DNA of 32,603 nt, from positions 1 through 32,603 of the forward strand of contig JBDHHX010000003.1 of NCBI GenBank assembly GCA_039589155.1. Direction: 5' to 3'. Positions 6,097 to 28,447 of the stretch are shown piece by piece. This stretch comes from Gemmatimonadota bacterium. GTDB lineage: Bacteria > Gemmatimonadota > Gemmatimonadetes > Palauibacterales > KS3-K002. How positions within the stretch are numbered: position 1 is the stretch's first letter; each line of letters opens with the position of its first letter. The notes below the pieces were generated by a model. That model was not told where the DNA came from and searched no databases. It saw nothing but the letters and a program-made list of their open reading frames with translations. A program made the translations under genes and the position numbers.

Positions 6097-6101
6097 TCGG
6101 T

Positions 6102-8587: not shown

Positions 8588-9964
8588 TTAGTTCGTGAGC
8601 TCGTACTTCTTCATGCGATAGCGGAGAGTATCACGGCTCAGGCCCAGAAGGCGTGCCGCACCGGTTACGTTGCCGCCCGTTCGCATAAGAGCCTGTTCGA
8701 TGGCGTCGCGCTCGACATCCGCCATGCTAAATCCCTCAGCCGGGAGCCGGACGATCCGATCGCTCCCGCCATTTGGCACGACAGCGCCGCGGATCTCCAC
8801 CGGCAGATGTTCTGGTAATATCGTCGTCATGTCTTCCATGATCAGTGCTCGTTCGAGCACGTTGCGAAGCTCGCGGGCATTGCCCGGCCATGAGTAAGCC
8901 TCGAGGACGCTGATTGCGTCTGCTGTCAGCGTGGGCGGCTCACGTCTTAGTTCTCCGGCCAATTGTTCGACGAAGTAGAGGGCCAACGGCGCACAGTCTT
9001 CTGGCCGATCGCGGAGCGGAGGAATGTAGAGGTCGACAACTTTCAGACGATAGTACAGGTCGCTTCGGAAGTCCCCCTCCTCCACAGCCTTGTCGAGCTT
9101 TCGGTTGGTGGCGGCAATAACCCGGACGTTAACCGGTATGTCGCTTGTGCCTCCCAGCCGCTTGAACCTCGAGTCTTCCAGGAAGCGCAGCAATTTGGAC
9201 TGAGCTCCAAGCGGCATGTCCCCAATTTCGTCCAGCAATAGAGTGCCCCCATCGGCAAGCTCGGCGAGGCCTTTCTTTCGTTCGCGCGCGTCCGTGAAGG
9301 CGCCACGCTCATGGCCAAAAAGCTCCGCCTCGACAAGTTGCTCGGGCAGCGTCGTACAGTTGATCTCGAGAAAGGGTTGATCCTTTCGGCCACTGCGGGC
9401 ATGAATGGCGCGAGCAACGAGGTCCTTTCCCGTGCCGCTCTCCCCCTGAAGCAACACCGTCGCTGACTCTGTCCGCGCCACCTTCTCCACTGTCTCAGCG
9501 AGTTGACGGAGCGCAGGAGAGCGGCCGACGAATTCAACGTTCGCAAACTGCCAGCGGTGCTCCGTGCGCAGGGCAGCGATCTGTCGTTGGAGACGTTGCG
9601 TCTCCAGGCCCTTCTCGACCGTGATAAGCAGGTCATCGAGATCCACCGGCTTCTCGAGGAAATGATAGGCTCCCGCCTTCACCGCCTGAACCGCCGTCTT
9701 CACCTGCCCAAATGCTGTCACGATCACGACGACCAGATCACGGTCGATCTCGTGAAGCCGAGTGGCGAGCTCGAGGCCGTCAGCGTCCGGGAGCCGCAGA
9801 TCGAGCAGCATCAGCCGTGGGCTCTCTTCCGCCGCCAGGCGCAGCGCCTCGGCGCCTGTCGCCGCTTCTTTGACCGCGTACCCGGCAGCACCGAGGTGCT
9901 CGCTCATCCAGCTGCGGAAGAGGTCCTCGTCGTCGACGACGGCGATAACCGGTCGAGCACTCAT
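8588..9964 (-). CDS. Sigma-54-dependent response regulator (NtrC/AtoC family)
   Basis: Receiver (VVDDE, DLRLPD, FLEKP), Walker A GESGTGKD, ELFGHERGAFTDA, LLLDEIG, WPGNARELRN and a C-terminal Fis HTH. Confidence 0.96.
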   Translation of the reverse strand: MSARPVIAVVDDEDLFRSWMSEHLGAAGYAVKEAATGAEALRLAAEESPRLMLLDLRLPDADGLELATRLHEIDRDLVVVIVTAFGQVKTAVQAVKAGAYHFLEKPVDLDDLLITVEKGLETQRLQRQIAALRTEHRWQFANVEFVGRSPALRQLAETVEKVARTESATVLLQGESGTGKDLVARAIHARSGRKDQPFLEINCTTLPEQLVEAELFGHERGAFTDARERKKGLAELADGGTLLLDEIGDMPLGAQSKLLRFLEDSRFKRLGGTSDIPVNVRVIAATNRKLDKAVEEGDFRSDLYYRLKVVDLYIPPLRDRPEDCAPLALYFVEQLAGELRREPPTLTADAISVLEAYSWPGNARELRNVLERALIMEDMTTILPEHLPVEIRGAVVPNGGSDRIVRLPAEGFSMADVERDAIEQALMRTGGNVTGAARLLGLSRDTLRYRMKKYELTN

Positions 9965-11823
9965 CGCACCAATGCCTCCTGCGGCTTCGCCGGAATGACG
10001 AGCGTGAACGTGCAGCCTTCGCCAGGCTCGCTCTCGATCTCGATATGGCCGCCGTGGCGTTCGACAATTCCTCGAGTGATCGCCAGACCAAGTCCCGTGC
10101 CCCGGTGTTTGGTGGTGTAGAACGGCCGATAGATACGGCTCAGTTCCTCGGGAGCGATCCCGTTTCCCGTATCTGAGATCGAAAAGCGCACACCGTCTTC
10201 CGCATTATCGAGGGATAGTTGAAGCGTCCCGCCGGGCGTCATCGCCTGGATCGCATTCAGAGCAAGGTTGACCAGAGCTTGAGTGAGGAGTTCGGGATCG
10301 ACCCGAATCGTTGGCAGTGCATCGGCGAAGCGTTCCGTGATTCGCACTCCAGCTGCATCTGCCTGGGAACGCACAAGCACGATGAGCCTCTCCATCAGTT
10401 GCTTAGGTTCGGTCCAGGTGAGCAGAGGTTCTTTTGGGCTGGCGTAGCTCAGTAAGTCTGTTAGCGCCGACTCGATACGTTTGACTTGCGCGTGTATCTG
10501 CTTCAGAATCGTGGTCGATTTCAGATCAGTACCGATCTGTTTGGATAAGAGATCAACTCCGCTCGCCACGCCGACGAGTGGGTTCTTTATCTCATGCGCG
10601 ATACCGGTGGCAAGCTCGCCGACGGAGGCGAGCTGCGCCGCCCGCCGCATCTCCTGCTCGTGAAGTTCCTGGATCTGGAGCGCCGACGACTGAAGCTCGC
10701 CGGACATCTGATTGAACGTGCGGCCGAGGTGGCCGATCTCATCGTCTCGCTCGATCTCGACTTCTACGCCCAGGTCACCTTTGCGAATCCGCTCGGCCGC
10801 GCCGACCAGGCGCCGCAAAGGGGCGACGATAGATCGGGCAACGGTCCAGACTATGGCAACCAGCAATAGGGCGAACACGCTCTCGAGCGTTGCGGCCAAC
10901 AGCGCCAAGCCACGCAGTTGGCCAAGGGCGCTGGCTACCGATGCCTCCGAGATGAACAGCCACGGAAGGCCGGGTACCTCAACGGAAGTGCCGACGACCT
11001 CGACGCCCTCGTAGTTCACGTAACGGGCGGTTGAACCCGGCGGCTGATCGACCAGCGGCGACGGGAGAGGCTGGAGGAAGTCGACGGGGATGTGAAGATG
11101 CGAGAAGTACACGGGGCGGCCCGAACGGTCTACGATGAAGGCGTGCACGTCGATGAGAGGATGCTCCGGGAGGCGCAAGAACCCCTGCAACCTGTCGAAA
11201 CCCACTGCGCCCCCGAGCACTCCTTCCGATCTTTGGCGCTCATCGCGTATCGGAACCGCCAGCAGGTAGGAAGGCACTACGTTCCCGCTCTGCGTGTCCC
11301 ACTCCGCCGCGAAGTAACGCTCGACGCGCCCGCGGCGGAAGAGCTGGCTGAGCGACCGATCCTCCCCGAGCCGGCTATCATTAGTCGCCGCAATCACCAT
11401 TCCCGCCGTGTCGATGACGAAGAGCTCGGTCAGCGACCTAACCTCATCGAGCTCGTGATCGAGGTGCTCCTTTATCGCCGTGGTAGACGGTTCCTTGCGC
11501 TGACCCGCCCGCAAATCTGCTGCCGCCTCGGGAATCCTCCGAAAGAGAGTACGGTTGCCTTCGGCAATTCCCTCCAACAACATCTGGTGCCGCTCGACCT
11601 CGGTGGCCACTTGCTGCGCCTGGACCTCCGCGATAGCCCGCAAGTAGCGTTGTATTTGCTGCTCGATGATGCCGCGGCTAACGACATAGCCCACGGTATT
11701 CGAGATTAGCAGGGGGACCAGCGATAATACGAGGAACCATAGCAGTATCCGGCGACCCAGCCCGCCACGCAGTGGCATCTTCTTCCACAGCGCGCGCCAG
11801 GGACTATCGCGGGTCAACGTCAC
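9961..11823 (-). CDS. Membrane sensor histidine kinase (dCache-like sensor, HAMP, HisKA, HATPase)
   Basis: Two TM segments flank a periplasmic domain; HAMP DEIGHLGRTFNQM, H-box AHEIKNPL, N-box NLALNAIQA, DTGNGI and GTGLGL. It overlaps the regulator start by 4 nt. Confidence 0.95.
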   Translation of the reverse strand: MTLTRDSPWRALWKKMPLRGGLGRRILLWFLVLSLVPLLISNTVGYVVSRGIIEQQIQRYLRAIAEVQAQQVATEVERHQMLLEGIAEGNRTLFRRIPEAAADLRAGQRKEPSTTAIKEHLDHELDEVRSLTELFVIDTAGMVIAATNDSRLGEDRSLSQLFRRGRVERYFAAEWDTQSGNVVPSYLLAVPIRDERQRSEGVLGGAVGFDRLQGFLRLPEHPLIDVHAFIVDRSGRPVYFSHLHIPVDFLQPLPSPLVDQPPGSTARYVNYEGVEVVGTSVEVPGLPWLFISEASVASALGQLRGLALLAATLESVFALLLVAIVWTVARSIVAPLRRLVGAAERIRKGDLGVEVEIERDDEIGHLGRTFNQMSGELQSSALQIQELHEQEMRRAAQLASVGELATGIAHEIKNPLVGVASGVDLLSKQIGTDLKSTTILKQIHAQVKRIESALTDLLSYASPKEPLLTWTEPKQLMERLIVLVRSQADAAGVRITERFADALPTIRVDPELLTQALVNLALNAIQAMTPGGTLQLSLDNAEDGVRFSISDTGNGIAPEELSRIYRPFYTTKHRGTGLGLAITRGIVERHGGHIEIESEPGEGCTFTLVIPAKPQEALVR

Positions 11824-12178
11824 CCTCCAGCAGGTCGATCAGCTTCCCGAGAAGCGCACCGTGCCCAGCAGATTTCGCCACCCAATGCACCTCCCGCATT
11901 CCCTGAGTCTGCTGATCTCGTGGCGGCGTCGTCGCACTGTACACTAGCATCAGCCGAACCACCGCCAGCTCCCTCACCCGCTCGAGCAGCGACAGGCCAT
12001 CCATCCCCGGCATTCGGTAGTCGGTCACCACCACGTCGGGCTCCACCGTCCTGCTGAGCTCCACCGCTTCTTCGGTGGAATCGGTCGCCCACACCTCGAA
12101 TCCACTCGCCTCGAGCGCAGCCGACACACTCTGCAAGACCAAGCGATCGTCATCCACAACAACGATCTTTCTGCCCAA
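11804..12178 (-). CDS. Single-domain response regulator (receiver only)
   Basis: KIVVVDDD, phosphoacceptor TDYRMPGMDGL, YSA and a conserved Lys. Start placed at TTG 12178 after GGAG; the ORF track start is 12229. Confidence 0.85.
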   Translation of the reverse strand: MGRKIVVVDDDRLVLQSVSAALEASGFEVWATDSTEEAVELSRTVEPDVVVTDYRMPGMDGLSLLERVRELAVVRLMLVYSATTPPRDQQTQGMREVHWVAKSAGHGALLGKLIDLLEGDVDPR

Positions 12179-12335
12179 TCTCACTCCAGCCTTCCCGATT
12201 GCCCGGTTTCCAAGCCGAATTCGGCCCACTGGGTCTTTTGCCCATCCTCAAGTTTGGCAAGAACGATACCGCCGGCTGATTGTTCGAAGTATAAGCAGTT
12301 TCTGACCTCAAGGCGACACTCCCGACTCGAGAAAC

Positions 12336-12372
12336 GGGTGAAATCCCCCGGTTCAATTGGGGGATTTGCCCC
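12336..12372. promoter_or_regulatory. Candidate upstream activator (enhancer) sites for the NtrC-family regulator
   Basis: GGGTGAAATCCCCC-N9-GGGGGATTTGCCCC has perfect 9-bp inverted arms (AAATCCCCC/GGGGGATTT), and each half is itself quasi-palindromic. It lies about 75-110 nt upstream of the -24 element. Confidence 0.6.
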
Positions 12373-12445: not shown

Positions 12446-12461
12446 TGGTACGAGACCTGCT
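12446..12461 (+). promoter_or_regulatory. Sigma-54 (-24/-12) promoter
   Basis: TGGTACGAGACCTGCT gives GG-N10-GC, close to the consensus TGGCAC-N5-TTGCW. It is about 90 nt before the cytochrome start and next to a sigma-54 activator gene. Confidence 0.75.
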
Positions 12462-12549: not shown

Positions 12550-14226
12550 ATGTTCAATCGTCTACGGTGCTCTCGTGATCTACAGGATGTGGGTGGCTGG
12601 GCCCGATCAAACCGCAAGACCGTGGCCCTGGCGCTCGCAGCCCTGTTGCTCGTCGGAGCCGCGGCTTGCGACGATGATCCCAGTGGCGTCGTCGATGACC
12701 CGCCCGAGTTTACTGCGGCCGACGGCATCAATGGCGGCACGATGTACGACAAGTTCTGGACTCCGGAGACGGGTTGGAATCAGAGCGATCCGAACCTGAC
12801 GACGTTCAATGACTTCTCGAACTTCTTCCGCTGCAAGCAGTGCCACGCGTGGGACAGGCTAGCCAACGAGGCGTCGTACATCGGCCGAGCACCGAGTACG
12901 TCGCGGCCGAACGTATCGTCGGCGGACCTGACGCATGTGGCCGATCACACGCCCCAGGAACTGTTCGACGAGCTAAAGAGCTCCGAGGGCAAGCGACCAC
13001 TGAGCACGGACCTTTCCACGTACGATCCGGCGACGAATGCGACCGAGGGCGACATGATGCCGGATCTCAGCGAGATCATGACGGACGCACAGATCTGGGA
13101 TCTCGTGAAGTTCCTGTTGGAAGAGGCCAACGATGTTGACCTGCTGTACGACTGGACCACCACCGGGACATACCCGAATGGGTCGATCACTTACTCGAAC
13201 ATCGGCGCCGGCGGTGATGCGACGAATGGTGACGCGATCTATGCGTCCACCTGCGCGGGCTGCCACGGCGCCGACGGCCGGGCAATCGTGGTGGACGGCG
13301 AGTTCACGGTGGGGAGCTTCCTCCGTTCGAAGCCGTACGAGGTGCAGCATAAGGTCAAGTTCGGGCAGCCAGGCACGTCCATGGGCAGCGAGTTGGTAAC
13401 GGACATCGACGACATACTGGATCTATACGCTGCACTCACGGACGAGACGATGTATCCGGATCCGGCGTTCGAGCTGGCGAGTGGCATCAACGGTGGAACG
13501 ATGTACGACAAGTTCTGGACTCCGGAGACGGGTTGGAACCAGAGTGACCCGAACCTGGCGACGTTCGACAACTTCTCGAATTTCTTCCGCTGCAAGCAGT
13601 GCCACGCGTGGGATCGATTGGGCAATGCGGGGTCCTACATCGGCCGCGCACCGAGCACGACGAGACCGAACGTGTCCTCGTTGAACCTGAAGACGGCCAC
13701 GGCCGCCATGTCAGAGCAGGATCTGTTCGACGCCCTCTGGCGCTCGACCAGCCGGCGAGCGGTGAGCGCGGATCTCTCCACCTATGATCCGGCCACCAAC
13801 TCCACGGTCGGCGACCAGATGCCGGACCTGAGTGACATCATGACCGAGGAACAGGTATGGGATCTGGTCAAGTTCCTGAAGGAAGAGGCGATCGACACCG
13901 ATCTGCTGTATACCACTTCCACCACCGGAACGTACCCAACCGGGTCACCGAGTTACTCGAACATCGGAACTGGCGGTGACGCGACCAGCGGCGACGCGGT
14001 CTATGCGGCCAACTGCGCCACCTGCCACGGTAACGACGGCAGGGCTTTCCTGGTGGATGGCAGCTTCTCGGTGGGAAGCTTCCTGCGAGCGAAACCGTAC
14101 GAAGTGCAGCACAAGGTGAAGTTCGGGCAGCCGGGCACGGCGATGGGAAGCCTACTGACGGACCTCGACGACATCCTGGATCTGTACCTGGCGTTGACGA
14201 ACGCGAGCACATATCCGGATCCGTAG
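12550..14226 (+). CDS. Tetraheme c-type cytochrome lipoprotein made of two tandem diheme modules
   Basis: ATG 12550 follows GGAGGAG. The hydrophobic segment ends in a lipobox-like AAA-C-DDD. CxxCH motifs are CKQCH, CAGCH, CKQCH and CATCH; candidate distal Met residues lie in (M/Q)MPDL and GQPGT(S/A)M. Confidence 0.88.
   Translation: MFNRLRCSRDLQDVGGWARSNRKTVALALAALLLVGAAACDDDPSGVVDDPPEFTAADGINGGTMYDKFWTPETGWNQSDPNLTTFNDFSNFFRCKQCHAWDRLANEASYIGRAPSTSRPNVSSADLTHVADHTPQELFDELKSSEGKRPLSTDLSTYDPATNATEGDMMPDLSEIMTDAQIWDLVKFLLEEANDVDLLYDWTTTGTYPNGSITYSNIGAGGDATNGDAIYASTCAGCHGADGRAIVVDGEFTVGSFLRSKPYEVQHKVKFGQPGTSMGSELVTDIDDILDLYAALTDETMYPDPAFELASGINGGTMYDKFWTPETGWNQSDPNLATFDNFSNFFRCKQCHAWDRLGNAGSYIGRAPSTTRPNVSSLNLKTATAAMSEQDLFDALWRSTSRRAVSADLSTYDPATNSTVGDQMPDLSDIMTEEQVWDLVKFLKEEAIDTDLLYTTSTTGTYPTGSPSYSNIGTGGDATSGDAVYAANCATCHGNDGRAFLVDGSFSVGSFLRAKPYEVQHKVKFGQPGTAMGSLLTDLDDILDLYLALTNASTYPDP
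12724..14223 (+). repeat. Intragenic tandem duplication, period 759 nt (copies 12724-13464 and 13483-14223)
   Basis: Both copies run from GINGGTMYDKFWTPETGWNQSDPNL to YPDP, with long identical DNA tracts such as ACGATGTACGACAAGTTCTGGACTCCGGAGACGGGTTGGAA. Confidence 0.95.
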
Positions 14227-14250
14227 CGGACTAGCCATTCGGCCAGGTCA

Positions 14251-14298
14251 AGGGGCGTACTCGTCTCCAGACGTCGACCGCGACGAGAGTGCGCCCCT
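14251..14298 (+). other. Intercistronic stem-loop
   Basis: AGGGGCGTACTC (14251-14262) pairs with GAGTGCGCCCCT (14287-14298) with one G-U pair. There is no U-tract. Confidence 0.6.
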
Positions 14299-14360
14299 AG
14301 GCCAACCGCTCCTAGGTATCTCCTAGCTATCAGGCATTATTCCTCCACCGAGGGGGCAAA

Positions 14361-14894
14361 GTGGCAAGGCTGAGTAGCGGCAGTGTCGGACGCACGTGGT
14401 GGGGTTACCTCGCGCTAGCCCTGGTCCTGGTGGCCGTGTCGACCATCACAGTCGTCGCGCTGCGCTCCGCGCCGGTTCCGCAGCCGGTCGCGTTCAACCA
14501 CCGCAAGCACACGCAGGACCTCAACCTCACTTGTGAGTTCTGTCATGTATACGTGAAGAAGGGCGCGCATGCGGGGCTACCGGATGCCCAGACCTGCACG
14601 ATGTGCCACCGAACACCACAAGGCACCTCGACCGAGGCTGCCCGGGTCACGACACTGCTCGACCAGGGCGACCCACTCACTTTCAACAAGCTGTTCGGCC
14701 TTGCGCCCCACGTCTTCTACACACACCGCCGCCATGTCGGCATTGCCGAACTGGAGTGCCGAGGCTGCCACGGCGATATCGCCGAGACCGAGCAGCCGCC
14801 CGATCGACCGTTGGTGAAGGTAGACATGGACTTTTGCATGGACTGCCACCGCGAACAGGGGCAGACCCTCGAATGCAACGCGTGCCACCGCTAA
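14361..14894 (+). CDS. Membrane-anchored pentaheme cytochrome c (cytochrome c3/c7-like; ActA/QrcA-type)
   Basis: N-terminal TM helix; PQPVAFNHRKH; CEFCH, CTMCH, CRGCH, CMDCH and CNACH; HVFYTHRRH supplies candidate distal His ligands. Confidence 0.9.
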   Translation: MARLSSGSVGRTWWGYLALALVLVAVSTITVVALRSAPVPQPVAFNHRKHTQDLNLTCEFCHVYVKKGAHAGLPDAQTCTMCHRTPQGTSTEAARVTTLLDQGDPLTFNKLFGLAPHVFYTHRRHVGIAELECRGCHGDIAETEQPPDRPLVKVDMDFCMDCHREQGQTLECNACHR

Positions 14895-14910
14895 TGCGGA
14901 GAGAACGAGG

Positions 14911-17271
14911 ATGAGACCCAGTCGGCGCGAGTTCCTGTGGACGATGGGTGCCGCCGCGGCTACGGTGGCGCTGAAAGGAACGCAGGACGTTTTCTGGACA
15001 GCGGAAGAGTCCGCCGACGTCGGGTGGGCGCCCGGGATCGAAGAGCGACGCAATTCCGCCTGCCTGATTTGCCCTTCGCGCTGTGGCATCAGCGGCCGCC
15101 TGGTTGACGGACGCCTGGTCAGAATCAGCGGCAATCCTCTGCACCCGCTGAGTCGCGGCGGCCTCTGTCCACGAGGAGTCGCCGGTGTGCAGTTGCTCTA
15201 TCACCCCGAGCGGCTCACCTCACCCCTGGTGCGCGCCGGCCCTCGCGGTGCCGACCAGTGGGAAGAGGCCACGCCGGATGAGGCCATCGCGCGCATCGCT
15301 GACCAGCTTCAGGCGTTGAGGGCAGCCGGCCGGCCCGAGGCGCTGGCATTGGCGGCTGGCTACAGCGCCGGCACGATGCACGATCTTTGGCGTCAGTTTC
15401 TGAGCTCCTTTGGATCACCGAACTACGTGGCCGACGAGTACGAGGACGGAACGGACGCGGTCATGGCGTCCATGCACGGCATCCAGCGTCGACCCAGCTA
15501 CGATCTCGACCGGGCCCGGCTAGTGCTTTCGTTCGGTGCTCCTCTGTTCGAGTCGTGGTGGTCTCCGCTCCAGGCGTTCGTGGCCTTTGCGAGCCCCGAC
15601 GAAGACGAAGGACCACGTCCTCGCTTCGTCCAGGTAGACGCGCGTTTCTCTCGTACGGCCTCGCGCGCCCACGAGTGGGTCGGTGTGCGGCCGGGAACGC
15701 ATGCCGTGCTCGCCCTTGGAATCGCCTATGTGCTGATAAGGGATGAGCTGTTCGACGCCGACTTCGTGGCGAGGCACGTGTCCGGGTTCGAGGATTTTGT
15801 AGACGCTGACGGCCAGCCTCGGGAGGGTTATCGATCGCTGGTTACGCGTAACTACCGAACCGAGGAAGTCTCAGCGATCACTGGTGTGCCGGTCGAGCGG
15901 ATCACCTCACTGGCCCGGGCACTCGCTGCCAACCGACCGGCTGTCGCGGTCTGCGGAACGGACGTCACCTTCGCCCCGAACGGGCTACTCGCCGGCCTGG
16001 CCGTGCACAGCCTCAACGTTTTGACGGGGAGTATCAACCGTCCGGGAGGAGTGCTCTTTGCGGACGATGCCCCAATTCAACCGCTGCCTTCGCCTGTGCT
16101 GGATGAGACCGCCCGCGCCGGCCTTGCCCACGAACCGGTTGGCTCGCCCCGACCTCGCTTCGGTAACGGTGGGGAGGCACTCCGCTTCGCCGAAGCCGTA
16201 GCCGGCGGCGAAGCCGCGGTGGAGGCGCTGCTGCTCTATTACGCCAACCCCATCGCTTCGTCGACACACCCCTCGGTCTGGCGTGAAGCGTTAGCGAAGA
16301 TCCCATTTGTCGTCAGCTTCTCACCGTTCATGGACGAGACCGCGCGCCACGCAGACGTGATCCTGCCCGACTTACTGCCGTACGAGCGCTGGCAGGACGC
16401 GCCGACGCCGGTCTCTTACCCGTACCCGGTTTGGGGGCTGGCCCGACCACTGGTGGAACCGCGTGAGGGCATGACGCATACGGGCGACGCCGTGTTAACC
16501 GTCGCACGTAGCCTGGGTGGCGGTGTCGGCCAGAGCCTGCCATACGAAAGCTTCGAACTGCTGCTCCAGCAACGGGCTCGAGGCCTCTTTTCGGTCCGCC
16601 GTGGCATGACGCTGGGTGACGAATTCGATCGGAAGCACCACAGCCAAATGGAGGAGCGTGGCTGGTGGCTGCCCGAGCATACCGAATTCGGACCATTCTG
16701 GGACGAGTTGGTGGAGCGCGGCGGCTGGACGGATCTGTTCTATGATGACACCGATCCCCACCGCTTCGCCCGAACCGAAAGCGGTCGCATCGAGCTGATG
16801 CCGGCCGCGCTGTTGCACGTTCTGAACCAGGAGGGATCGGCGCGCGAGCTGTACATCGACGTCGCGCACAGGGCGGGCCAGACCCCGGCGGGTTTCCCGC
16901 TTCGTCTCATACCCTATCGCGTCTCCACCCTCGCCTCGGGCACCCTGGCCCTCGAGCGATGGCTCGCCGAGCAACCGGGAATCTTCCCCGATGTGCTATG
17001 GGTCCCCTGGGTCGAGGTGGCTCCCGAAACGGCTCGCGCCCTGGATATGGGTGACGACACAGACGTGTGGGTAGTCTCACAGCGCGGCCGCTATCGAGCC
17101 CGTCTCAAAGTATCTCATGGAACAGCACACGGGAACGTCGGCGCGCCTTACGGGCTTCGCCATCCTGACGGCACGGCGGCGAGTCCGCTCCAGCTGCTTG
17201 ATGGCTCGTACGACCCGCTGACAGGGCTCGCGAGTTGGCTTTCCACCTTTGTCCGCCTCGAGAGGGCGTGA
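14911..17271 (+). CDS. Tat-exported molybdopterin oxidoreductase-family subunit (QrcB/ActB1-like)
   Basis: Tat motif SRREFL; Fe-S motif CLICPSRC...LCPRG; YHPERL, SFSPFMDETARHADVILP, YERW; C-terminal molybdopterin dinucleotide-binding-like domain. Confidence 0.9.
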   Translation: MRPSRREFLWTMGAAAATVALKGTQDVFWTAEESADVGWAPGIEERRNSACLICPSRCGISGRLVDGRLVRISGNPLHPLSRGGLCPRGVAGVQLLYHPERLTSPLVRAGPRGADQWEEATPDEAIARIADQLQALRAAGRPEALALAAGYSAGTMHDLWRQFLSSFGSPNYVADEYEDGTDAVMASMHGIQRRPSYDLDRARLVLSFGAPLFESWWSPLQAFVAFASPDEDEGPRPRFVQVDARFSRTASRAHEWVGVRPGTHAVLALGIAYVLIRDELFDADFVARHVSGFEDFVDADGQPREGYRSLVTRNYRTEEVSAITGVPVERITSLARALAANRPAVAVCGTDVTFAPNGLLAGLAVHSLNVLTGSINRPGGVLFADDAPIQPLPSPVLDETARAGLAHEPVGSPRPRFGNGGEALRFAEAVAGGEAAVEALLLYYANPIASSTHPSVWREALAKIPFVVSFSPFMDETARHADVILPDLLPYERWQDAPTPVSYPYPVWGLARPLVEPREGMTHTGDAVLTVARSLGGGVGQSLPYESFELLLQQRARGLFSVRRGMTLGDEFDRKHHSQMEERGWWLPEHTEFGPFWDELVERGGWTDLFYDDTDPHRFARTESGRIELMPAALLHVLNQEGSARELYIDVAHRAGQTPAGFPLRLIPYRVSTLASGTLALERWLAEQPGIFPDVLWVPWVEVAPETARALDMGDDTDVWVVSQRGRYRARLKVSHGTAHGNVGAPYGLRHPDGTAASPLQLLDGSYDPLTGLASWLSTFVRLERA

Positions 17272-17284
17272 GGGACGAAAGATA

Positions 17285-17968
17285 ATGGCGCGTTGGGGAA
17301 TGGTGATCGACCTGGATCGTTGTACGGGCTGCGCGGCATGCGAGGTAGCGTGTAAGAGCGAGAACAACATCCCCACTGTCTCTCCCGATCAGGCGAACAT
17401 GGGGCGTGCGATGAACTGGATGAAGGTCACGGCGGAACTGGAGGGAGAGTTCCCGGATACGACGATGCACTTCTACCCTCGCCCCTGCATGCACTGCGAC
17501 AACCCGCCGTGCATCAGAGTCTGCCCGGTACAGGCGACCTATATCGATGATGAAGGCATCGTAGGCCAGATCTATCCGCGTTGCATCGGCTGCCGCTACT
17601 GCGCCAACGCCTGCCCATATATGGTGAAGTATTTCAACTGGTACGGACCCGAGTGGGCCGAGAGCGAGCGGCAGCACCTGAACCCGGACGTATCAGTACG
17701 ACCCAAGGGTGTCATCGAGAAATGCACGCTCTGTCATCATCGACTTCAGAAAGCTCGCGAAGATGTCCGCGCCGAGGAACGGGAGCTGCGTGAGCAGGAC
17801 TATCAACCCGCCTGTGCCGAGATTTGTCCCACTGGTGCCATCGTCTTCGGCGACCTGGACAACCCCAGTCATAGGGTGGCCAGCCTGAAGGAAGATCCCC
17901 GAGCGATGCGTTTGATGGAGGATTTGGGAACGCAACCAAAAGTCTACTATCTGCGGCCGAGAGAATGA
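17285..17968 (+). CDS. 4Fe-4S ferredoxin subunit (QrcC/ActB2/PsrB-like)
   Basis: MARWGMVIDLDRCTGCAACEVAC, CMHCDNPPCIRVCP, CIGCRYCANACP and KCTLC...PACAEICP give 16 Cys for four clusters. Start moved to ATG 17285. Confidence 0.93.
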   Translation: MARWGMVIDLDRCTGCAACEVACKSENNIPTVSPDQANMGRAMNWMKVTAELEGEFPDTTMHFYPRPCMHCDNPPCIRVCPVQATYIDDEGIVGQIYPRCIGCRYCANACPYMVKYFNWYGPEWAESERQHLNPDVSVRPKGVIEKCTLCHHRLQKAREDVRAEERELREQDYQPACAEICPTGAIVFGDLDNPSHRVASLKEDPRAMRLMEDLGTQPKVYYLRPRE

Positions 17969-17969
17969 T

Positions 17970-19340
17970 ATGCGCCAGGACGTGAAAGAAAAAATGGCCC
18001 GTATGTCGGCCGACGAGCAAGTTCTTCTGAGGCCGCTGGTTGAAACATCCCGCGGTTTCTACATCGTGGCAGCGATCCTTACGGCGATCACGCTGTTGGG
18101 GGTCATTAGTTACTACCTGCAAGTCAGCTTCGGGCTCGGTCGGACGGGCCTGAATCGCCCCGGGTACTGGGGTATCTACATCATCTGTTTTGTCTTCTTC
18201 ATCGGGATCAGTCACGCCGGCACCCTGATTTCCGCCATTCTCCGCGTTAGCAAGGCGGAGTGGAGACGTTCGATCACTCGTTCGGCGGAATTGATCACGG
18301 TTCTGGTCATCGGCTTCGGCGCCATCCAGCCGATAATCGACCTCGGCCGACCTGACCGGGTGCTGAACGTCATGCTACACGCCCAAATGCTGTCGCCGTT
18401 ACTCTGGGACGTCACAAGCATCGGTCTCTACTTTATATCGTGTACCATCTACCTCTATGTCCCGCTGTTGCCTGACCTGGCGATCATCCGTGACTCGGGT
18501 ATCAAAGCGCCGCGTTTTTACCGGTTTCTGGCAGCCGGCTACCGCGATACGCCGGCGCAGCGAGCGCGACTCGAACGGGTTATCGGTGTCCTGTCGATCG
18601 TTGTGATTCCGATAGCGGTTTCGGTCCACACCGTGATCGGGTGGATCTTCGCAATGACGCTCCGCCCCATGTGGCACAGCACCATTTTTGGACCCTACTT
18701 CGTCATGGGTGCAATCTACTCCGGCATTGCGGCTATTCTGGTCGCCATGGTCGTGTTGCGTCGAGCATTCGGCTTGCAACAGTACTTCAAGCTCATTCAC
18801 TTCGACTACCTGGGCCGCCTGCTCCTTCTGTTTAGCCTGCTCTGGTTCTACTTCACCTTCGCCGAATACCTGACCGCGTTCTATGGTGGGGAGCCCGGAG
18901 AGATGCGTGCCTTTTGGGCGAAGCTGACCGGGCCATTCGCAATCCCCTTCTGGACCATGGTAATGGGCTGCTTCGTCGTACCGCTCGCACTCATGTCGCG
19001 GCAGTCGATGCGAACGCCTCGGGGCACCCTGATCGCTGGTATCGCAGTGATGATTGGCATGTGGCTCGAGCGGTTCAACATCGTGGTTCCGACATCGGTC
19101 AATCCGCGGTGGGAGATCGAGGCGATCGGTCGTTACGTGCCGTCCTGGATCGAACTGTCGATCATGGCGGCCACGTTTTCAGGTTTCATTCTGCTGTACA
19201 TGGTAGCCACAAAGTTTGTCCCGATTGTCTCAATCTGGGAGATCAAGGAAGGACGAGAGCACTCTGTGCGGGAAGTTGCCGATCGCGTGGCTGAGTACCT
19301 ACCCGCGGGCGAATTGGCAGCCGCCGCGGAGGACAAATGA
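17970..19340 (+). CDS. NrfD/PsrC family quinol-interacting membrane subunit (ActC/QrcD-like)
   Basis: About 10 TM segments; FVFFIGISHAGTLISAILR, TRSAE, DLGRP, SPLLWD, SVHT, WHSTIFGPYFVMGAIYSG and MWLERF. Confidence 0.92.
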   Translation: MRQDVKEKMARMSADEQVLLRPLVETSRGFYIVAAILTAITLLGVISYYLQVSFGLGRTGLNRPGYWGIYIICFVFFIGISHAGTLISAILRVSKAEWRRSITRSAELITVLVIGFGAIQPIIDLGRPDRVLNVMLHAQMLSPLLWDVTSIGLYFISCTIYLYVPLLPDLAIIRDSGIKAPRFYRFLAAGYRDTPAQRARLERVIGVLSIVVIPIAVSVHTVIGWIFAMTLRPMWHSTIFGPYFVMGAIYSGIAAILVAMVVLRRAFGLQQYFKLIHFDYLGRLLLLFSLLWFYFTFAEYLTAFYGGEPGEMRAFWAKLTGPFAIPFWTMVMGCFVVPLALMSRQSMRTPRGTLIAGIAVMIGMWLERFNIVVPTSVNPRWEIEAIGRYVPSWIELSIMAATFSGFILLYMVATKFVPIVSIWEIKEGREHSVREVADRVAEYLPAGELAAAAEDK

Positions 19341-20548
19341 TGAGCTTCCGAAGTGTCGGGCGGATTCTGTTGATGTCATCTTTCGGCGTGCTGTGTTCTG
19401 TTATACCGGGAGGGGTCGGCGCTGCCCACGCGCAATCCGAGTTATCGTTCCTCGGGGATCCCATCTCCGGGCGCCGGATCTTCGTCGAGCGAGACTGTGA
19501 TCGTTGTCACGCCATCTGGGGAAACGGCGGTACGCTCGGCCCTGATTTCGCGTTGGTCGGGGCGGGACGCAGCTTGCAGCAGCTGGCGGGCATGTTCTGG
19601 AACCACACTCCCCGGATGATCCAAACCGTGCAGGTCAGGGGATTCCAATGGCCGACGTTCACCGAGGAAGAGCTCGCAGACATCATAAGCTACATTTATT
19701 ACGTGAAGCTGTTCGACGAGCCTGGCGATCCGCTTCAGGGCGAGCGATGGTTCCGCGAGAAGCGCTGCATCGAATGTCATTCGATCGCCGGTGAAGGTGG
19801 CCGAGGCGGCCTGCCGCTTGACGACTACGCTCGCTATATCGCCCCCATCATGCTGGCGGAGGGGATGTGGAATCACGGCTCCGCAATGCAGGCGCTACAG
19901 ACCTCGCAACGTGTGCCGATCCCCACGTTCAGCGGGCGAGAGTTGGCAGATATCCAGGCCTTCATCCGACACAGGTCGAGTCTCGAGGACCGTGATGTCG
20001 TCCTTCTCCAGCCCCCCGACCCCAATACCGGTCGAGATTTATTCCTGACCAAAGGGTGTTCGAGCTGCCACGGCCTCAGCGGAGATGGAACGCGGTTCGG
20101 ACCGGATCTCAGAAGTGCGACTCAACGGCTCCGAGTATCGGAGATTGCAGGCCAGCTCTGGAACCACTCATCGCAGATGACGGCAGCCATGAGGGCCCGG
20201 GGTATCTCAATCCCCCGGTTTCAGGGCAGCGAGATGGCGGACGTCATCGCGTTTCTCTACTACTTGCGGTTCTACGATACTGGAGGTGACGCGGAGGCGG
20301 GTGAAGCAGTCTTTGCAGAGAAAGGCTGCGCCCGCTGTCACGCTGTTGATGGTGGAAGCTCGATCGGGCCTGATCTTGCTACATCAGACGCGATACTAGC
20401 ACCCCTACGACTCGCCACGGCGATGTGGAATCACGCGCCTGCCATGTACAGGGTCATCCAACTCGAGCAGGTGGATTGGCCCAGATTTGAAGGGACAGAA
20501 ATGAGAGACCTTACGGTCTATTTGAGGAACCTGGCCGCCAGCAGGTGA
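19337..20548 (+). CDS. Periplasmic cytochrome with four class I cytochrome c repeats
   Basis: Signal peptide (AAHA-Q); CDRCH, CIECH, CSSCH and CARCH, each followed by a GPD(L/F)-like segment and WNH-x3-M. It overlaps the NrfD stop. Confidence 0.9.
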   Translation: MMSFRSVGRILLMSSFGVLCSVIPGGVGAAHAQSELSFLGDPISGRRIFVERDCDRCHAIWGNGGTLGPDFALVGAGRSLQQLAGMFWNHTPRMIQTVQVRGFQWPTFTEEELADIISYIYYVKLFDEPGDPLQGERWFREKRCIECHSIAGEGGRGGLPLDDYARYIAPIMLAEGMWNHGSAMQALQTSQRVPIPTFSGRELADIQAFIRHRSSLEDRDVVLLQPPDPNTGRDLFLTKGCSSCHGLSGDGTRFGPDLRSATQRLRVSEIAGQLWNHSSQMTAAMRARGISIPRFQGSEMADVIAFLYYLRFYDTGGDAEAGEAVFAEKGCARCHAVDGGSSIGPDLATSDAILAPLRLATAMWNHAPAMYRVIQLEQVDWPRFEGTEMRDLTVYLRNLAASR

Positions 20549-20654
20549 CGCGGCGCGAGGACAGCTCTGGCCCGGAAGCAGGCCACAGCCAGCAGAGCAG
20601 CGCCTCTTACGTGGTGCAGAGTGTAGAGAAACACCGCGGGACTGGAGGACTACC

Positions 20655-21872
20655 ATGACTGGCAAACATCCACCCATCAAACCGACCGGAAGAGTCGCCG
20701 TAGCAACGACCCCAGCCCTTGCTCTGTTTCTTCTGTGCGTTGCACAGCCGGCCTATCCACAAGAACGCGCTGGCCTCACGCAGAACGCCATCGCCGGCTC
20801 CCGGGTCTTCGGGTCGAAGGGTTGCGTTAAGTGTCACGCGGTGAATGGGCTGGGTGGAACGCTTGGACCCGACCTGGGACTCATTGCCCAACGCCGATCA
20901 TTCTACGATCTGGCCGCCAGTCTGTGGAATCACCTGCCACGCATGGGAATGAAGATGGAGGAACTCGGCATCGAGCGCCCGCAATTGAACGAGAGAGATA
21001 CGGGTGACCTGATAGCGTTTCTGTTCACGCTGGACTACTTCGACCCGGCGGGCGACGCGGAAGCCGGAGAGCATCTGTTCGTGGAGAAATCGTGCGTGGT
21101 GTGTCACCAGGTGGGCTTGCACGGCGGCGTGGCCGGACCAAGCCTTGACCACCTCGGGCATTTCGGCTCACCGATCCTGGTCGCAGCCGCGATGTGGAAT
21201 CACGGTCCCGGCATGCAGACCATGATGGAGGCCAAGGGAGTGGACCGCCCTACCTTCTCCGACTCTGAGCTCACAGACTTGATCGCCTACCTCGAATCGA
21301 TCTCGCCGCCGACCCTCGCCGGGCCGTTATACGTTTTGCCCGGAGATGCCGAACAAGGTCGAATTGTATTCACGAATAGCAGCTGCGCAGAGTGCCACAG
21401 CGTTCGCGGCGCCGGAGGTCGCGTGGGACCGGATCTGGCTCGTCGTGGAGTCCACTGGGACCTGACTCAATTCGCGGCGGCTATGTGGAACAAAGCGCCC
21501 CGCATGACCGCCGACATGCGGGCGCGCGGGATACAAGTGCCTCAGATTGGCGCTGGTGAGATGGCCGATCTTGTAGCCTATCTCTATTCCGTTCAGTACT
21601 TCGCCGACTCTGGCGACCCTCAGGCAGGAAGGTCGCTCCTGCGCAGTAAAGGGTGCCTGACTTGCCACTCGCTCAACGGCCAGGGGGGGAGGGTCGCCGG
21701 CAACCTTGCCGAGAGATCGGGTACGGGATCGCCAGCTTGGGTCATCTCCACAGTCTGGAATCACTCGACGCACATGGAGTCAGGAGACAGCCTTGCTGTT
21801 CTTTGGCCCAGCATTAGCGCTGAAGAGATGGCCGACATCGCCGCGTTCTTACAGACACAGAGTCAGAACTGA
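20655..21872 (+). CDS. Second four-repeat cytochrome c (paralogue of the preceding gene)
   Basis: RBS GGAGG; signal peptide; CVKCH, CVVCH, CAECH and CLTCH with WNHLPRM, WNHGPGM, WNKAPRM and WNHSTHM. Confidence 0.9.
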   Translation: MTGKHPPIKPTGRVAVATTPALALFLLCVAQPAYPQERAGLTQNAIAGSRVFGSKGCVKCHAVNGLGGTLGPDLGLIAQRRSFYDLAASLWNHLPRMGMKMEELGIERPQLNERDTGDLIAFLFTLDYFDPAGDAEAGEHLFVEKSCVVCHQVGLHGGVAGPSLDHLGHFGSPILVAAAMWNHGPGMQTMMEAKGVDRPTFSDSELTDLIAYLESISPPTLAGPLYVLPGDAEQGRIVFTNSSCAECHSVRGAGGRVGPDLARRGVHWDLTQFAAAMWNKAPRMTADMRARGIQVPQIGAGEMADLVAYLYSVQYFADSGDPQAGRSLLRSKGCLTCHSLNGQGGRVAGNLAERSGTGSPAWVISTVWNHSTHMESGDSLAVLWPSISAEEMADIAAFLQTQSQN

Positions 21873-21901
21873 GCAAGAGAACCGCCAAAGAATGGATTAA
21901 C

Positions 21902-22132
21902 ATGGACCCGGAAGCCTTAGAGGGATTGTTAGTACTGGCCAAGACTGGCGTGATAATCGGCGGAGGATGTGCCTTCACACTGGGAAGCATCTGGGGAGCG
22001 TGCGCCGCCGCAATAGGTTACTTCCAGCGAAAGGATCGCAGAGACGAATTGCTGCCGCTGTACAAAGAAGGAAAGATCACCACAAAGCCGACAGTCCTGA
22101 ACGCATATAAGATCCCCGGATACGAGTTGTAG
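21902..22132 (+). CDS. Small hypothetical membrane protein (76 aa)
   Basis: One Gly/Ala-rich hydrophobic segment followed by a basic stretch (QRKDRR). It lies 29 nt after the cytochrome gene and before a terminator; the RBS is weak. Confidence 0.55.
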   Translation: MDPEALEGLLVLAKTGVIIGGGCAFTLGSIWGACAAAIGYFQRKDRRDELLPLYKEGKITTKPTVLNAYKIPGYEL

Positions 22133-22187: not shown

Positions 22188-22213
22188 TTCAGCGGATGAA
22201 CGCTGAATCTTTT
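22188..22213 (+). terminator. Probable intrinsic terminator of the respiratory operon
   Basis: TTCAGCG-GATGAA-CGCTGAA stem-loop followed by TCTTTT. Confidence 0.6.
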
Positions 22214-26830: not shown

Positions 26831-28429
26831 CTAATCATTCGCCGGCCGCAAAGCGACTACGTTGACGACTGGCGCCGCGGGCTGGACCGGCTCCCCGGCG
26901 GCGTTGACCTTGTTCAGATACGCGTTCGGGTCGTGGTTCAGTGCTCCCGCCGGGAGGTATTCCCACAGCGGGCCCAAGTCCCGCTTGATGCGGTCCGTAA
27001 AGAAGGAAGGCACCTCGGTCGTCTCGCCGTCGAAGAACCGGCGCACGGATCGGTCGGTGTCAAGCAGCCGGCGCACGGTTGAATAGTACTTGATACGCCC
27101 AAAACCCTCCGAAGAGATGGCCCGTACGACGTTCAACCAGGTCGAAAACCCCGGCTGCGTGGCACGCGCTCGGCGAGCGATTGCTTTCCAAGAAAACGAG
27201 TACCTGGTCAGGTCGATGACGCGATCGTAGAATGTCGTCCAATCGTAGTTCTTCGGGCGCACGTTCAGCGCATGGTTGTTGTTGAGGAAGTGGAAGGGGA
27301 ACGGAAGAACGCGACCCGCCCTCTGCAATTCGAGATTCAGCGGTGCCGCCTCTCCAAATGCCGTGAGCAAAGAGTATCCCGGGAACGCCCCAGGCGTCAT
27401 GTCGATGAATCGTTTCGTAAGCTCGAACGGCTGATCTCCCTCGTCCGCGTCGAGGCCGAGCACGAAGTTGGTCTGCACGTACGGTACATAGCGAAGCACC
27501 ATGTTCACGTGCTCGGATACCTTCCTGACCTTCTCGATCCCCTCCGTGCGACCCGTCTTCGACTTCGCGCCGAGCGAGTACCACGACTCGATCCCCGGGA
27601 GTAACGCTTTGAAGCCCGCGTCGCGCATCCGCTCGAGGTTGGGCTCGGAGAGGAGTGAGAGACTGCTCTCGGCGATGAAGGAAGGAGAGTTCTGCACGGT
27701 CCCATCCGCGATGGCGTCCATACATTCGTTGAACCGAACGCCGAAATTGGGATCGTGCCATCCAACGGCCGCGCCAGGAATCGCCCTGCCGAGGAAGATC
27801 AGGTCGTCGCGGATCTGATCACGGCAGAGCGGCTGATACTCGATCGACGAGTCGATGCAAAAGCTGCAGGTGTAAGGGCAACCCAGGCTTGCAACCATAG
27901 GAACCGCTTTTATGCTCGTGACCGTCTTCGCCAGCGTGGGCTCGATGTACTTCCAACGCTGCCTGGCGCCAGGCAGGCTCTCCGGCTGTCGCGGGGCGCT
28001 CAGATACAGCCCCAGCGGCCGGTGCTGACTGCAGTCGTTCAGAACGTCCTCCACAACGGATCGGTCCGTGAAGCCGAGCACGTAATCGAAATACTTGCGG
28101 GCGTCATCCGGGTAACAGCGCGCATGCGGTCCGCCTAGAACGGTCACCACGCCACGCTGGCGGAAGAGGTTGCTGACCGAATACGCCAGCTGCGCCGCCT
28201 GTGTGAACGCGCCGATGAAGAGCAGGTCCGTGTCTAGCGGTAGTTCCTCCGCCAGGTCCTCAAGGCCCGTGTAGCAGACAAACCTGACATCGTGGCCAGC
28301 CTCCTCGCACCAGACCGCTACCGCCTGAGGCATGATGCTCGCCAGGTTCCCATGCATCGCCCGCGCCCAGAGCGAGCGCGTAGGAGCTTTGGCGACTAAA
28401 TCCAGTATCCCGATTCGTAGTCGTCGCAC
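26831..28429 (-). CDS. B12-binding domain radical SAM protein
   Basis: N-terminal cobalamin-binding-like region (VTVLGGPHA), CPYTCSFC (CxxxCxxC), DPNFG, PGIES and NFVLGLDAD. Confidence 0.88.
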   Translation of the reverse strand: MRRLRIGILDLVAKAPTRSLWARAMHGNLASIMPQAVAVWCEEAGHDVRFVCYTGLEDLAEELPLDTDLLFIGAFTQAAQLAYSVSNLFRQRGVVTVLGGPHARCYPDDARKYFDYVLGFTDRSVVEDVLNDCSQHRPLGLYLSAPRQPESLPGARQRWKYIEPTLAKTVTSIKAVPMVASLGCPYTCSFCIDSSIEYQPLCRDQIRDDLIFLGRAIPGAAVGWHDPNFGVRFNECMDAIADGTVQNSPSFIAESSLSLLSEPNLERMRDAGFKALLPGIESWYSLGAKSKTGRTEGIEKVRKVSEHVNMVLRYVPYVQTNFVLGLDADEGDQPFELTKRFIDMTPGAFPGYSLLTAFGEAAPLNLELQRAGRVLPFPFHFLNNNHALNVRPKNYDWTTFYDRVIDLTRYSFSWKAIARRARATQPGFSTWLNVVRAISSEGFGRIKYYSTVRRLLDTDRSVRRFFDGETTEVPSFFTDRIKRDLGPLWEYLPAGALNHDPNAYLNKVNAAGEPVQPAAPVVNVVALRPAND

Positions 28430-28447
28430 GAGGGGCTCTTCCCCTTT

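Follow-up and report, generated by a model that had tools for sequence, protein, structure and literature searches.

The 32,603-nt window analyzed here (Gemmatimonadota bacterium, NCBI GenBank assembly GCA_039589155.1, contig JBDHHX010000003.1, positions 1 to 32,603 of the forward strand) belongs to a Gemmatimonadota metagenome-assembled genome (MAG; label G000, hereafter the host) and carries, at positions 12550-22132, an eight-gene operon for a multiheme respiratory complex, whose open reading frames (ORFs) we refer to by the working names O1 to O8. Based on sequence comparisons, we place the complex encoded by O2-O6 in the group formed by alternative complex III (ACIII) and Qrc in the superfamily of complex iron-sulfur molybdoenzymes (CISM), nearest to ACIII, and conclude that it is very probably a member of the ACIII family, a second and divergent one in its host. 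It is not a new kind of machine, but an uncharacterized, stripped-down, and rewired variant of a known family. As to its function, we lean towards an inducible menaquinol:cytochrome c oxidoreductase.

Gene content of the operon

All eight co-oriented + strand ORFs at 12550-22132 were confirmed from the ORF list and the translations:

O1, 12550..14226, + strand: 558 aa, lipoprotein-like tetraheme cytochrome c, accessory; Pfam Cytochrom_C and Cytochrome_CBB3
O2, 14361..14894, + strand: 177 aa, ActA-like pentaheme cytochrome c, membrane-anchored at its N-terminus
O3, 14911..17271, + strand: 786 aa, ActB1/QrcB-like molybdopterin-family subunit, exported by twin-arginine translocation (Tat)
O4, 17285..17968, + strand: 227 aa, ActB2/QrcC-like ferredoxin, 4Fe-4S dicluster protein by family match; ATG at 17285
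O5, 17970..19340, + strand: 456 aa, ActC-like NrfD quinone-site subunit; NrfD match at 8e-36
O6, 19337..20548, + strand: 403 aa, tetraheme cytochrome c with four class-I domains; 4-nt overlap between its start and the O5 stop
O7, 20655..21872, + strand: 405 aa, tetraheme class-I cytochrome c paralogous to O6
O8, 21902..22132, + strand: 76 aa, hydrophobic

Counting CxxCH motifs in the translations gave four in O1, five in O2, four in O6, and four in O7, or 17 altogether, and an earlier sequence-only reading of this DNA, which had listed the same genes with 4+5+4+4 hemes, was correct in this respect. Its 16-Cys ferredoxin, single NrfD subunit, and Tat-exported molybdopterin-family subunit were likewise recovered by motifs and Pfam matches, O5 being the only NrfD match in the operon contig. 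No Pfam family was matched by O8, which also has no similarity to the ActD of the host.

A conserved five-gene unit

The species-representative genome collection held 218 relatives of O6, and our locus survey covered the best 80 of these, nearly all of which are labelled Gemmatimonadota. Neighbors were counted in "loci with room", i.e., those with enough flanking DNA for the neighbor to be scored. O5 lies directly upstream of O6 in 65/67 such loci; of the two misses, L045 is a filter artifact, and L075 truly has only O6 and O7. O3, O4, and O5 are all present in 56/57 loci with room, and O2 was found in 46/57 at a strict 80%-coverage filter, with most of the others recovered at a looser one. 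Between the O5 stop and the O6 start there is an overlap of 4 nt in 25 loci and of 1 nt in 10 (35 of the 65 measured gaps), as would be expected of two translationally coupled genes, which we take them to be. Another family (distant locus L113) retains the order of the five genes at 29-60% identity, and in locus L114 (G049:C5:28000-46000) the O2-O6 variant stands directly after a canonical ActB2-C-D-E-F cluster on the same strand, a tandem that suggests either an old duplication or joint use. Given the near-constant co-presence of the genes, the adjacency and overlap of O5 and O6, and the order kept in L113 and L114, we regard O2-O6 as one unit.

The conserved unit therefore comprises five genes, namely, those for the ActA-, ActB1-, ActB2-, and ActC-like proteins and the tetraheme class-I cytochrome, whilst O1, O7, and O8 are lineage-specific additions. 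O7 lies directly downstream of O6 in 30/65 loci with room. A tblastn match to O8 was obtained in about 11/80 loci, all of the closest clade (69-76% identity, with one at 61%; 10 orthologues under a stricter filter), and to O1 in 7/80, again in the closest clade only (six orthologues under the stricter filter). O1 is absent from genome G012 and is 827 aa long in G015. The "three non-canonical cytochromes" attributed to the operon from its sequence must accordingly be divided into one that belongs to the conserved unit (O6) and two that are accessory (O7 and O1).

For tallies across the phylum we used 201 Gemmatimonadota genomes, evenly sampled and at least 85% complete; three of them (G210, G130, and G094) are unpublished and were used only in these tallies. 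Orthologues of O5 (at least 55% identity) occur in 18/201 genomes, a different long NrfD (46-48% identity to O5) in 8/201, and an ActC-like gene at an E-value of 1e-50 or better in 187/201. A published survey, in the part available, reported ACIII in <10% of Gemmatimonadota genomes, with low similarity as the suspected reason (PMC9426454).

Relationship to ACIII and Qrc

The same sequence-only reading had described the core of the operon as Qrc/ACIII-like. It is true that O2-O4 find their best NCBIfam matches in Qrc models, yet all are below cut-off: against the equivalog cut-offs, O2-O5 scored 82/180 (QrcA), 287/440 (QrcB), 314/400 (QrcC), and 28/570 bits (QrcD). The host genome also carries a canonical ACIII on contig C257 (ActA, fused ActB, ActC, ActD, ActE, and ActF), and this system scores much the same on the Qrc models (58, 305, 206, and 28 bits, respectively), which indicates that the "Qrc" best hits reflect the content of NCBIfam, where neither these proteins nor the canonical subunits of the host hit a model with a better fit. 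The Qrc label could not be upheld, since canonical ActB and ActC give the same best hits and O5 matches ActC at 6e-66, as opposed to 28 bits on QrcD.

The solved ACIII complexes used for comparison were those of Rhodothermus marinus (6F0K), Flavobacterium johnsoniae (6BTM), and Roseiflexus castenholzii (6LOD), together with 8K9E. O5 matched the ActC chains of all four at 6e-66 to 7e-53, the best match covering residues 34-426, and matched ActF weakly; the canonical ActC of the host reached 9e-136. O5 and the host ActC are 38% identical. O2 matched the solved ActA chains at 3e-18 to 1e-13. Among solved structures, O3 was closest to ArrA and PsrA (1e-43), with ActB at 2e-13, and it is homologous along its length to the host ActB1; O4 is 42% identical to the host ActB2. 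When the canonical ActD, ActE, and ActF of the host were used as queries, no counterpart was found in the window, just as the sequence-only reading had it: there were only weak heme-motif matches, and the ActF query matched only O5.

A tree of O5 (121 rows, LG+G4, quick search, with support from the Shimodaira-Hasegawa-like approximate likelihood ratio test, SH-aLRT) was built from O5 itself, seven orthologues, the canonical ActC, an NrfD from host contig C245 that served as the outgroup, and those 50%-cluster representatives that reach 400 aa (111 of 150, with the 39 shorter ones left out); the tree contains no named references. The Gemmatimonadota clade of O5 (support 100) lies within a 15-row group (92), which falls outside the 44-row clade (99) that holds the canonical ActC, and both are contained in a 64-row clade (95).

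The molybdopterin-like subunit

O3 starts with the Tat motif RREFLW, of which RR-x-F is invariant among orthologues, and has the Pfam domains Molybdop_Fe4S4, Molybdopterin, and Molydop_binding. Across 62 sequences, conservation of its FS0 motif, CX2CX3CX27C, is at least 90%, and the four Cys are invariant in a 22-sequence subset. Neither Cys, Ser, nor Sec occupies the position of the molybdenum ligand in O3; in the alignments, Asp179 stands opposite the ligand Cys of ArrA and Gly180 opposite that of PsrA, and D179-G180 is invariant. Asp is also found at this position in the cofactor-less ActB of R. marinus, and Ile in the other solved ActB compared (8K9E_B). The canonical ActB of the host keeps the FS0 Cys, which the solved ActB chains 8K9E_B and R. 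marinus 6F0K_B do not have. O4 has no signal peptide. We consider that O3 is most likely a molybdenum-free scaffold and the Tat carrier of the signal-less O4; it possibly holds an FS0 cluster, and Asp179 is conceivable as a metal ligand.

An O3 that worked as a molybdenum or tungsten bis-pyranopterin guanine dinucleotide (Mo/W-bisPGD) enzyme, with Asp179 as the ligand, would turn the complex into a periplasmic substrate:quinone (or cytochrome) oxidoreductase. The conservation of the FS0 motif and of the CPRG that follows it, the invariant D179-G180 at the ligand position, the Molydop_binding match (31 bits, above the Pfam cut-off), and the fact that ArrA and PsrA are the best solved matches are all in keeping with such an enzyme. 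However, these two enzymes have the ligand Cys that O3 lacks, the same Asp occurs in a cofactor-less ActB, and the FS0 motif is shared with the canonical ActB of the host. In addition, O3 gives a poor alignment to catalytic enzymes over its C-terminal two fifths, and its best NCBIfam model is QrcB. We therefore regard a catalytic O3 as very improbable.

The cytochromes

O2 has a hydrophobic N-terminus, and none of its five CxxCH motifs varies across 16 sequences. O1 consists of two halves that share 71% identity over 253 aa and represent a tandem duplication of a diheme unit; its N-terminus (...GAAAC-DDD) looks like a lipobox by eye, and no informative relative of O1 was found among solved structures. 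O6 and O7 are 34% identical, and each consists of four class-I cytochrome c repeats. The AlphaFold2 model of O6 (mean predicted local distance difference test score, pLDDT, 81; predicted template modeling score, pTM, 0.73) is a string of four class-I domains, and a Foldseek search of the model against the PDB returned nothing but individual class-I cytochrome domains and an engineered c555 trimer, none of them analogous over the whole chain. Profile searches revealed no specific link between O6 and ActE. A Met four residues after WNH is invariant in all four repeats of O6 (20/20 sequences), which suggests that the hemes are His/Met-ligated. Class-I hemes with His/Met ligation have high potentials.

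The database names of O6 relatives are generic, and the atlas look-alikes of O1 and O6 are generic c-type cytochromes. Look-alike clusters of ~400 aa, which serve as leads only, come most often from Gemmatimonadota, Acidobacteriota, Methylomirabilota, and Rokubacteriota. Two stand-alone paralogues of O7 occur elsewhere in the host: one at C219:6765-8256 (67% identical), where the next multiheme gene is cut by the contig end, and one at C44:2404-9401 (58% identical), ~4 kb from a lipoprotein-like cytochrome with nine CxxCH motifs.

O6, O7, and O1 could also be free periplasmic shuttles that are merely co-expressed with a membrane complex made of O2-O5 alone. The Sec signals of O6 and O7 look cleavable by eye, O7-type paralogues stand alone in the host genome, and locus L075 has O6 and O7 without O2-O5, all of which would fit such shuttles. 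On the other hand, the start of O6 overlaps the stop of O5, and the two genes are adjacent in 65/67 loci. Furthermore, the database protein P0231 (597 aa, 69% identical to O6) has both NrfD and cytochrome c domains in Pfam, and is either an O5-O6 fusion or a gene-calling artifact. We deem the shuttle arrangement a serious alternative, albeit a rather unlikely one.

Regulation and transcript ends

Upstream of the operon, and on the opposite strand, lie three regulatory genes, followed by candidate control elements; a terminator-like site stands downstream of O8:

8588..9964, - strand: sigma-54-dependent response regulator, 458 aa; receiver, AAA+ sigma-54 interaction domain, and Fis-type helix-turn-helix
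9961..11823, - strand: sensor histidine kinase, 620 aa; periplasmic dCache_1, HAMP, HisKA, and HATPase_c (Pfam); syntenic in related loci
11804..12229, - strand: single-domain receiver, 141 aa; Pfam Response_reg 5e-17; syntenic in close relatives
12336..12372, no strand assigned: inverted repeat GGGTGAAATCCCCC-N9-GGGGGATTTGCCCC, candidate enhancer (upstream activating sequence, UAS) for the sigma-54 activator
12446..12461, + strand: -24/-12 sigma-54 promoter-like site TGGTACGAGACCTGCT, GG-N10-GC present
22188..22207, + strand: weak terminator-like hairpin followed by TCTTTT (terminator scan)

The response regulator matches Pfam Sigma54_activat (1.5e-67), Response_reg, and HTH_8, and many related loci show it in synteny with the operon. 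The promoter-like site fits 10 of the 12 specified consensus positions; a best score of 10 was also obtained in 28/2000 random 350-nt windows taken from related loci. TGGTACG-N4-[CG]TGC is kept in 9/10 close loci inspected, and in the same 9/10 the equivalent of the inverted repeat, which we interpret as a putative activator binding site, lies at a fixed distance upstream. We also found rpoN in the host genome. The sigma-54 promoter predicted from the sequence is thus supported by the GG-N10-GC site, the adjacent activator, rpoN, and conservation in close loci.

Outside the closest clade, strict sigma-54 regular expressions failed, matching only 4/47 and 3/47 upstream regions, and a consensus-scoring scan combined with direct inspection was used in their place. 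In the more distant loci the promoter was not recognizable by this means either, with a score of at least 9 in 10/47 upstream regions compared with 191/2000 background windows. Sigma-54 control, as judged from these sites, is consequently supported for the closest clade only. As for the terminator that had been proposed, a hairpin with a T-run does exist at 22188-22207; however, it is weak, and such sites are no more frequent than in shuffled sequence (seven found in the region vs. 6.1 expected).

Proposed function and direction of electron transfer

The steps of the mechanism that we propose come from homology and gene order. O5 would bind menaquinol at a site on the periplasmic side, beside the ferredoxin O4. 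Four [4Fe-4S] clusters in O4 would conduct the electrons to O2, the pentaheme protein anchored in the membrane, and from there they would reach O6, which would act in place of ActE; O7 and the lipoprotein O1 would extend the chain in this lineage. The high-potential cytochromes would then deliver the electrons to some periplasmic terminal oxidase or reductase. O3 would be the Tat-exported, ActB1-like scaffold that carries O4 across the membrane, probably with no molybdenum cofactor, and may keep FS0. The dCache kinase and the sigma-54 activator next to the operon would turn on its expression via the -24/-12 promoter and the upstream inverted repeat, and protons might be translocated through the region of the conserved Arg368.

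To evaluate the quinone site, residues of O5 were mapped to R. marinus ActC via a phmmer alignment, and their conservation was counted in 68 sequences (67 orthologues and the window's own). The quinol-site residues of R. marinus ActC include His139, Asp169, and Asp253 according to the available part of a review of the NrfD family (PMC8076601). Ser142, Asp147, and Arg368 of O5, which correspond to ActC Ser164, Asp169, and Arg395, are invariant in 68/68, from which we conclude that the quinone site appears to be retained. By sequence, then, Tat- and Sec-exported redox proteins that should face the periplasm surround an NrfD subunit with a retained quinone site, and the proposal of a quinone-coupled periplasmic electron-transfer complex without biochemical characterization is supported at this level.

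Quinol oxidation is the direction that we would choose, by a modest preference, because the output cytochromes O1, O6, and O7 are made of class-I cytochrome c domains and appear to be of the His/Met type, the backbone is that of ACIII, and the [NiFe] hydrogenase of the host has its own cytochrome b subunit. A Qrc-type entry route for hydrogen was rejected on the last of these grounds. NosZ was considered as the electron acceptor and was also rejected, as a rough comparison showed no co-enrichment with the operon.

Several observations weigh against menaquinol oxidation by an ACIII-like route. First, His139 of ActC is replaced by Asp124 in O5, and Asp253 by Ile226, both in 68/68. Asp at the His139 position is found in QrcD, HybB, DsrP, PsrC, and TtrC, as far as the available text of the same review goes (PMC8076601), and for this reason the site chemistry of O5 may differ from that of ACIII. 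Second, all 16 Cys of O4 are invariant in 66/66 sequences (65 orthologues and the window's own), with the ACIII-type [3Fe-4S] signature replaced by a complete group of four Cys. Third, the Met of the fourth repeat is not conserved in O7, and the placement of O6 as a bound subunit, as opposed to a soluble shuttle, is argued from gene order and overlap. Fourth, no oxidase or reductase gene adjoins the operon in the window, and NosZ is present in 9/18 operon genomes compared with 82/201 of all sampled genomes, a rough comparison in which related genomes are not independent. Finally, a search of sequencing runs for the operon yielded no RNA runs, and DNA runs with small shares only.

The canonical ActC of the host and six canonical-side representatives have His and Asp at the 139 and 253 positions, whereas in ten O5-side representatives Asp is paired with Val, Ile, or Leu. 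In the canonical ActB2 of the host, Thr takes the place of the second group III Cys. In the part of the NrfD review that was available, the loss of a Cys in this way is the [3Fe-4S] signature, and ACIII is stated to hold a [3Fe-4S] cluster beside the quinone site (PMC8076601); Qrc is likewise reported, in the source as available, to have a [3Fe-4S] cluster there. O4 is predicted to hold four [4Fe-4S] clusters rather than one of the [3Fe-4S] type. The O4-O5 module would accordingly resemble the Psr, Nrf, and Hyb modules in its cluster type and in the acidic residue of transmembrane helix 2 (TMH2), on an ActC-like backbone.

These same features could be taken to mean that the complex runs in reverse, as a cytochrome c:menaquinone oxidoreductase that donor electrons enter via O1, O6, and O7, and that is possibly driven uphill by the proton-motive force; it would then be Qrc-like in function, or would act as proposed for the ACIII-like clusters of iron oxidizers. 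O5 has Asp where ActC has His, as do the quinone reductases QrcD and HybB, and O4 lacks the [3Fe-4S] signature. A split ActB1 with CX2CX3CX27C occurs in iron-oxidizer clusters that are proposed, in the portion of that study available, to feed quinones (PMC4643136), and an accessory, tightly regulated operon (18/201 genomes) would suit a substrate-specific entry route. Yet the same Asp is present in the quinol oxidizers PsrC, TtrC, and MccD, within what the sources as available describe, and is therefore no indicator of direction. His/Met class-I cytochromes would, on general grounds, make the reduction of menaquinone uphill. Moreover, the window offers neither a periplasmic dehydrogenase nor an oxidase as a candidate for handling a lithotrophic donor, the hydrogenase comes with its own cytochrome b, and the scores on all four NCBIfam Qrc models are below cut-off. 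Taken together, we judge reverse operation to be unlikely.

Another reading keeps the quinol-oxidizing direction and has the module feed a multiheme network that leads to an extracellular or mineral acceptor. Cytochromes with nine hemes (sub-threshold matches to MtrC/MtrF domains), along with Rieske and cytochrome b genes, are found downstream in a subset of loci, the O7 paralogues on C44 and C219 of the host are near multiheme cytochromes, and a similar reading has been proposed, in the available parts of the sources, for MBNT15 (PMC9386147) and Melioribacter clusters. Against this, multiheme neighbors occur in at most 12/80 loci, and the MtrC-like Pfam match reaches 27.5 bits, below the 30-bit cut-off, with another hit of 38.6 bits in which no stretch passes alone. 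The window itself has no porin, outer-membrane cytochrome, or gene with more than five hemes, and the surface partner that had been suggested is thus unsupported for it. We hold an extracellular acceptor to be quite improbable, and menaquinol:cytochrome c oxidoreduction is the reading that we retain.

Comparison with related systems

The operon is like ACIII in its pentaheme ActA-like anchor, its cofactor-less-looking B1 subunit, its four-cluster B2 ferredoxin, and its full-length ActC-like NrfD, and O5 keeps the equivalents of Ser164, Asp169, and Arg395. Unlike the solved ACIII complexes, it has ActB split over two genes (O3 and O4), and it is without ActD, monoheme ActE, and the second NrfD, ActF; a tetraheme class-I cytochrome stands where ActE would act. 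O4 has 16 Cys and lacks the Thr substitution of the host's canonical ActB2, whilst O5 has Asp for His139 and Ile for Asp253 and scores half as many bits as the host ActC on R. marinus ActC (227 vs. 457).

With QrcABCD it shares a four-subunit ABCD-like architecture, separate B and C genes, a single NrfD, and Asp at the TMH2 quinone-site position. It differs in scoring below all Qrc cut-offs, in the five hemes of O2, and in an O4 without the [3Fe-4S] signature that Qrc has according to the source as available. In addition, its putative partner cytochromes, those of the operon, are class-I and not c3-type, whereas the Qrc of sulfate reducers works with type I cytochrome c3 and a periplasmic hydrogenase or formate dehydrogenase, and its host is a NosZ-bearing member of the Gemmatimonadota.

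The likeness to PsrABC and NrfCD lies in the four [4Fe-4S] clusters of the ferredoxin, the acidic quinone residue of TMH2, and the Tat-exported alpha subunit that carries a signal-less beta subunit. In contrast to these systems, O3 is without the Mo-ligand Cys, the operon includes a pentaheme subunit, and O5 aligns to ActC, which has ten helices as given in the accessible literature, and not to the eight-helix PsrC.

Some ACIII-like clusters from genome papers come closer, although the comparison was by description only and refers to the parts of these papers that were available. The Nitrospirales have actAB1B2CDE without ActF and ActG in 47 genomes (PMC12342949, a paper that cites Refojo 2013, "variations on the same theme"). 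Cluster 4 of MBNT15 comprises ActABCD and a four-heme "ActE-like" protein without ActF (PMC9386147). The actAB1B2CDEF clusters of iron oxidizers have a split ActB with CX2CX3CX27C in ActB1 and keep ActD-F (PMC4643136). As described there, none of the three is biochemically characterized, and all keep ActD plus ActE, or ActD-F, unlike the operon. The statement that no characterized complex has this composition therefore holds as regards characterization; given the split-ActB and ActF-less clusters in these papers, the composition is less unprecedented than was claimed. Our literature searches found no description of the five-gene Gemmatimonadota unit and no biochemical work on such a unit, and the NrfD review, in the part available, has no such group among its listed types (PMC8076601).

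Other modules in the host and the window

In the canonical ACIII cluster on C257 (L106:1167-7980), ActA and ActB form one frame of 1219 aa, with three CxxCH motifs and then a low-complexity stretch before the Tat motif; this single frame is possibly the result of an assembly frameshift that joined two genes. A third NrfD module of the host, on contig C245 (L107:120-5614), consists of a cytochrome with eight CxxCH motifs, a Tat ferredoxin, and a 399-aa NrfD; cytochrome b, Rieske, and a cytochrome of at least seven hemes adjoin it back to back. Modules of the C245 type are situated just upstream of the O2-O6 operon in several loci (e.g., L036, L037, and L040). Loci L110 and L112 (genomes G076 and G074) have a ferredoxin and a 709-aa NrfD with a long C-terminal extension, and no cytochrome or molybdopterin-like gene. 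The module of L110 adjoins a sigma-54 activator, and the 709-aa type of NrfD is present in 8/201 sampled genomes.

Elsewhere in the window, 3313-7811 encodes a cyanophycin synthetase (927 aa) and then a second protein of Mur-ligase type (569 aa). On the - strand, 26831-29218 holds ORFs of 532 aa and 256 aa without a Pfam match, which adjoin a beta-lactamase-family protein and a 925-aa MacB/FtsX-type permease.

Implications

We have also entertained, with considerable doubt, the idea that O2-O6 represent a third functional lineage within the ACIII/Qrc family, with a coupling unlike that of either. The markers of such a tentative lineage would be the single NrfD, the Asp-type quinone site, the all-[4Fe-4S] wire, a possibly live FS0, and the tetraheme His/Met cytochrome. 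If the idea is true, the lineage might provide a reversible or non-pumping link between menaquinol and cytochrome c, or a second exit via O3. It may reach well beyond the Gemmatimonadota, since NrfD proteins with Asp plus Ile, Val, or Leu are numerous among uncharacterized database representatives.

Two systems have been studied in which an NrfD subunit and a ferredoxin link quinone reactions to the conservation of energy, namely ACIII and Qrc, and they work in opposite directions. The O2-O6 variant, which is conserved across deep Gemmatimonadota lineages, alters residues and a cluster around the quinone site and drops the second NrfD. With a naturally altered quinone site and only one NrfD, it therefore offers a comparison case for the features that set direction and proton coupling, and it gives a widespread and poorly cultured phylum a further, regulated branch of its respiratory chain.

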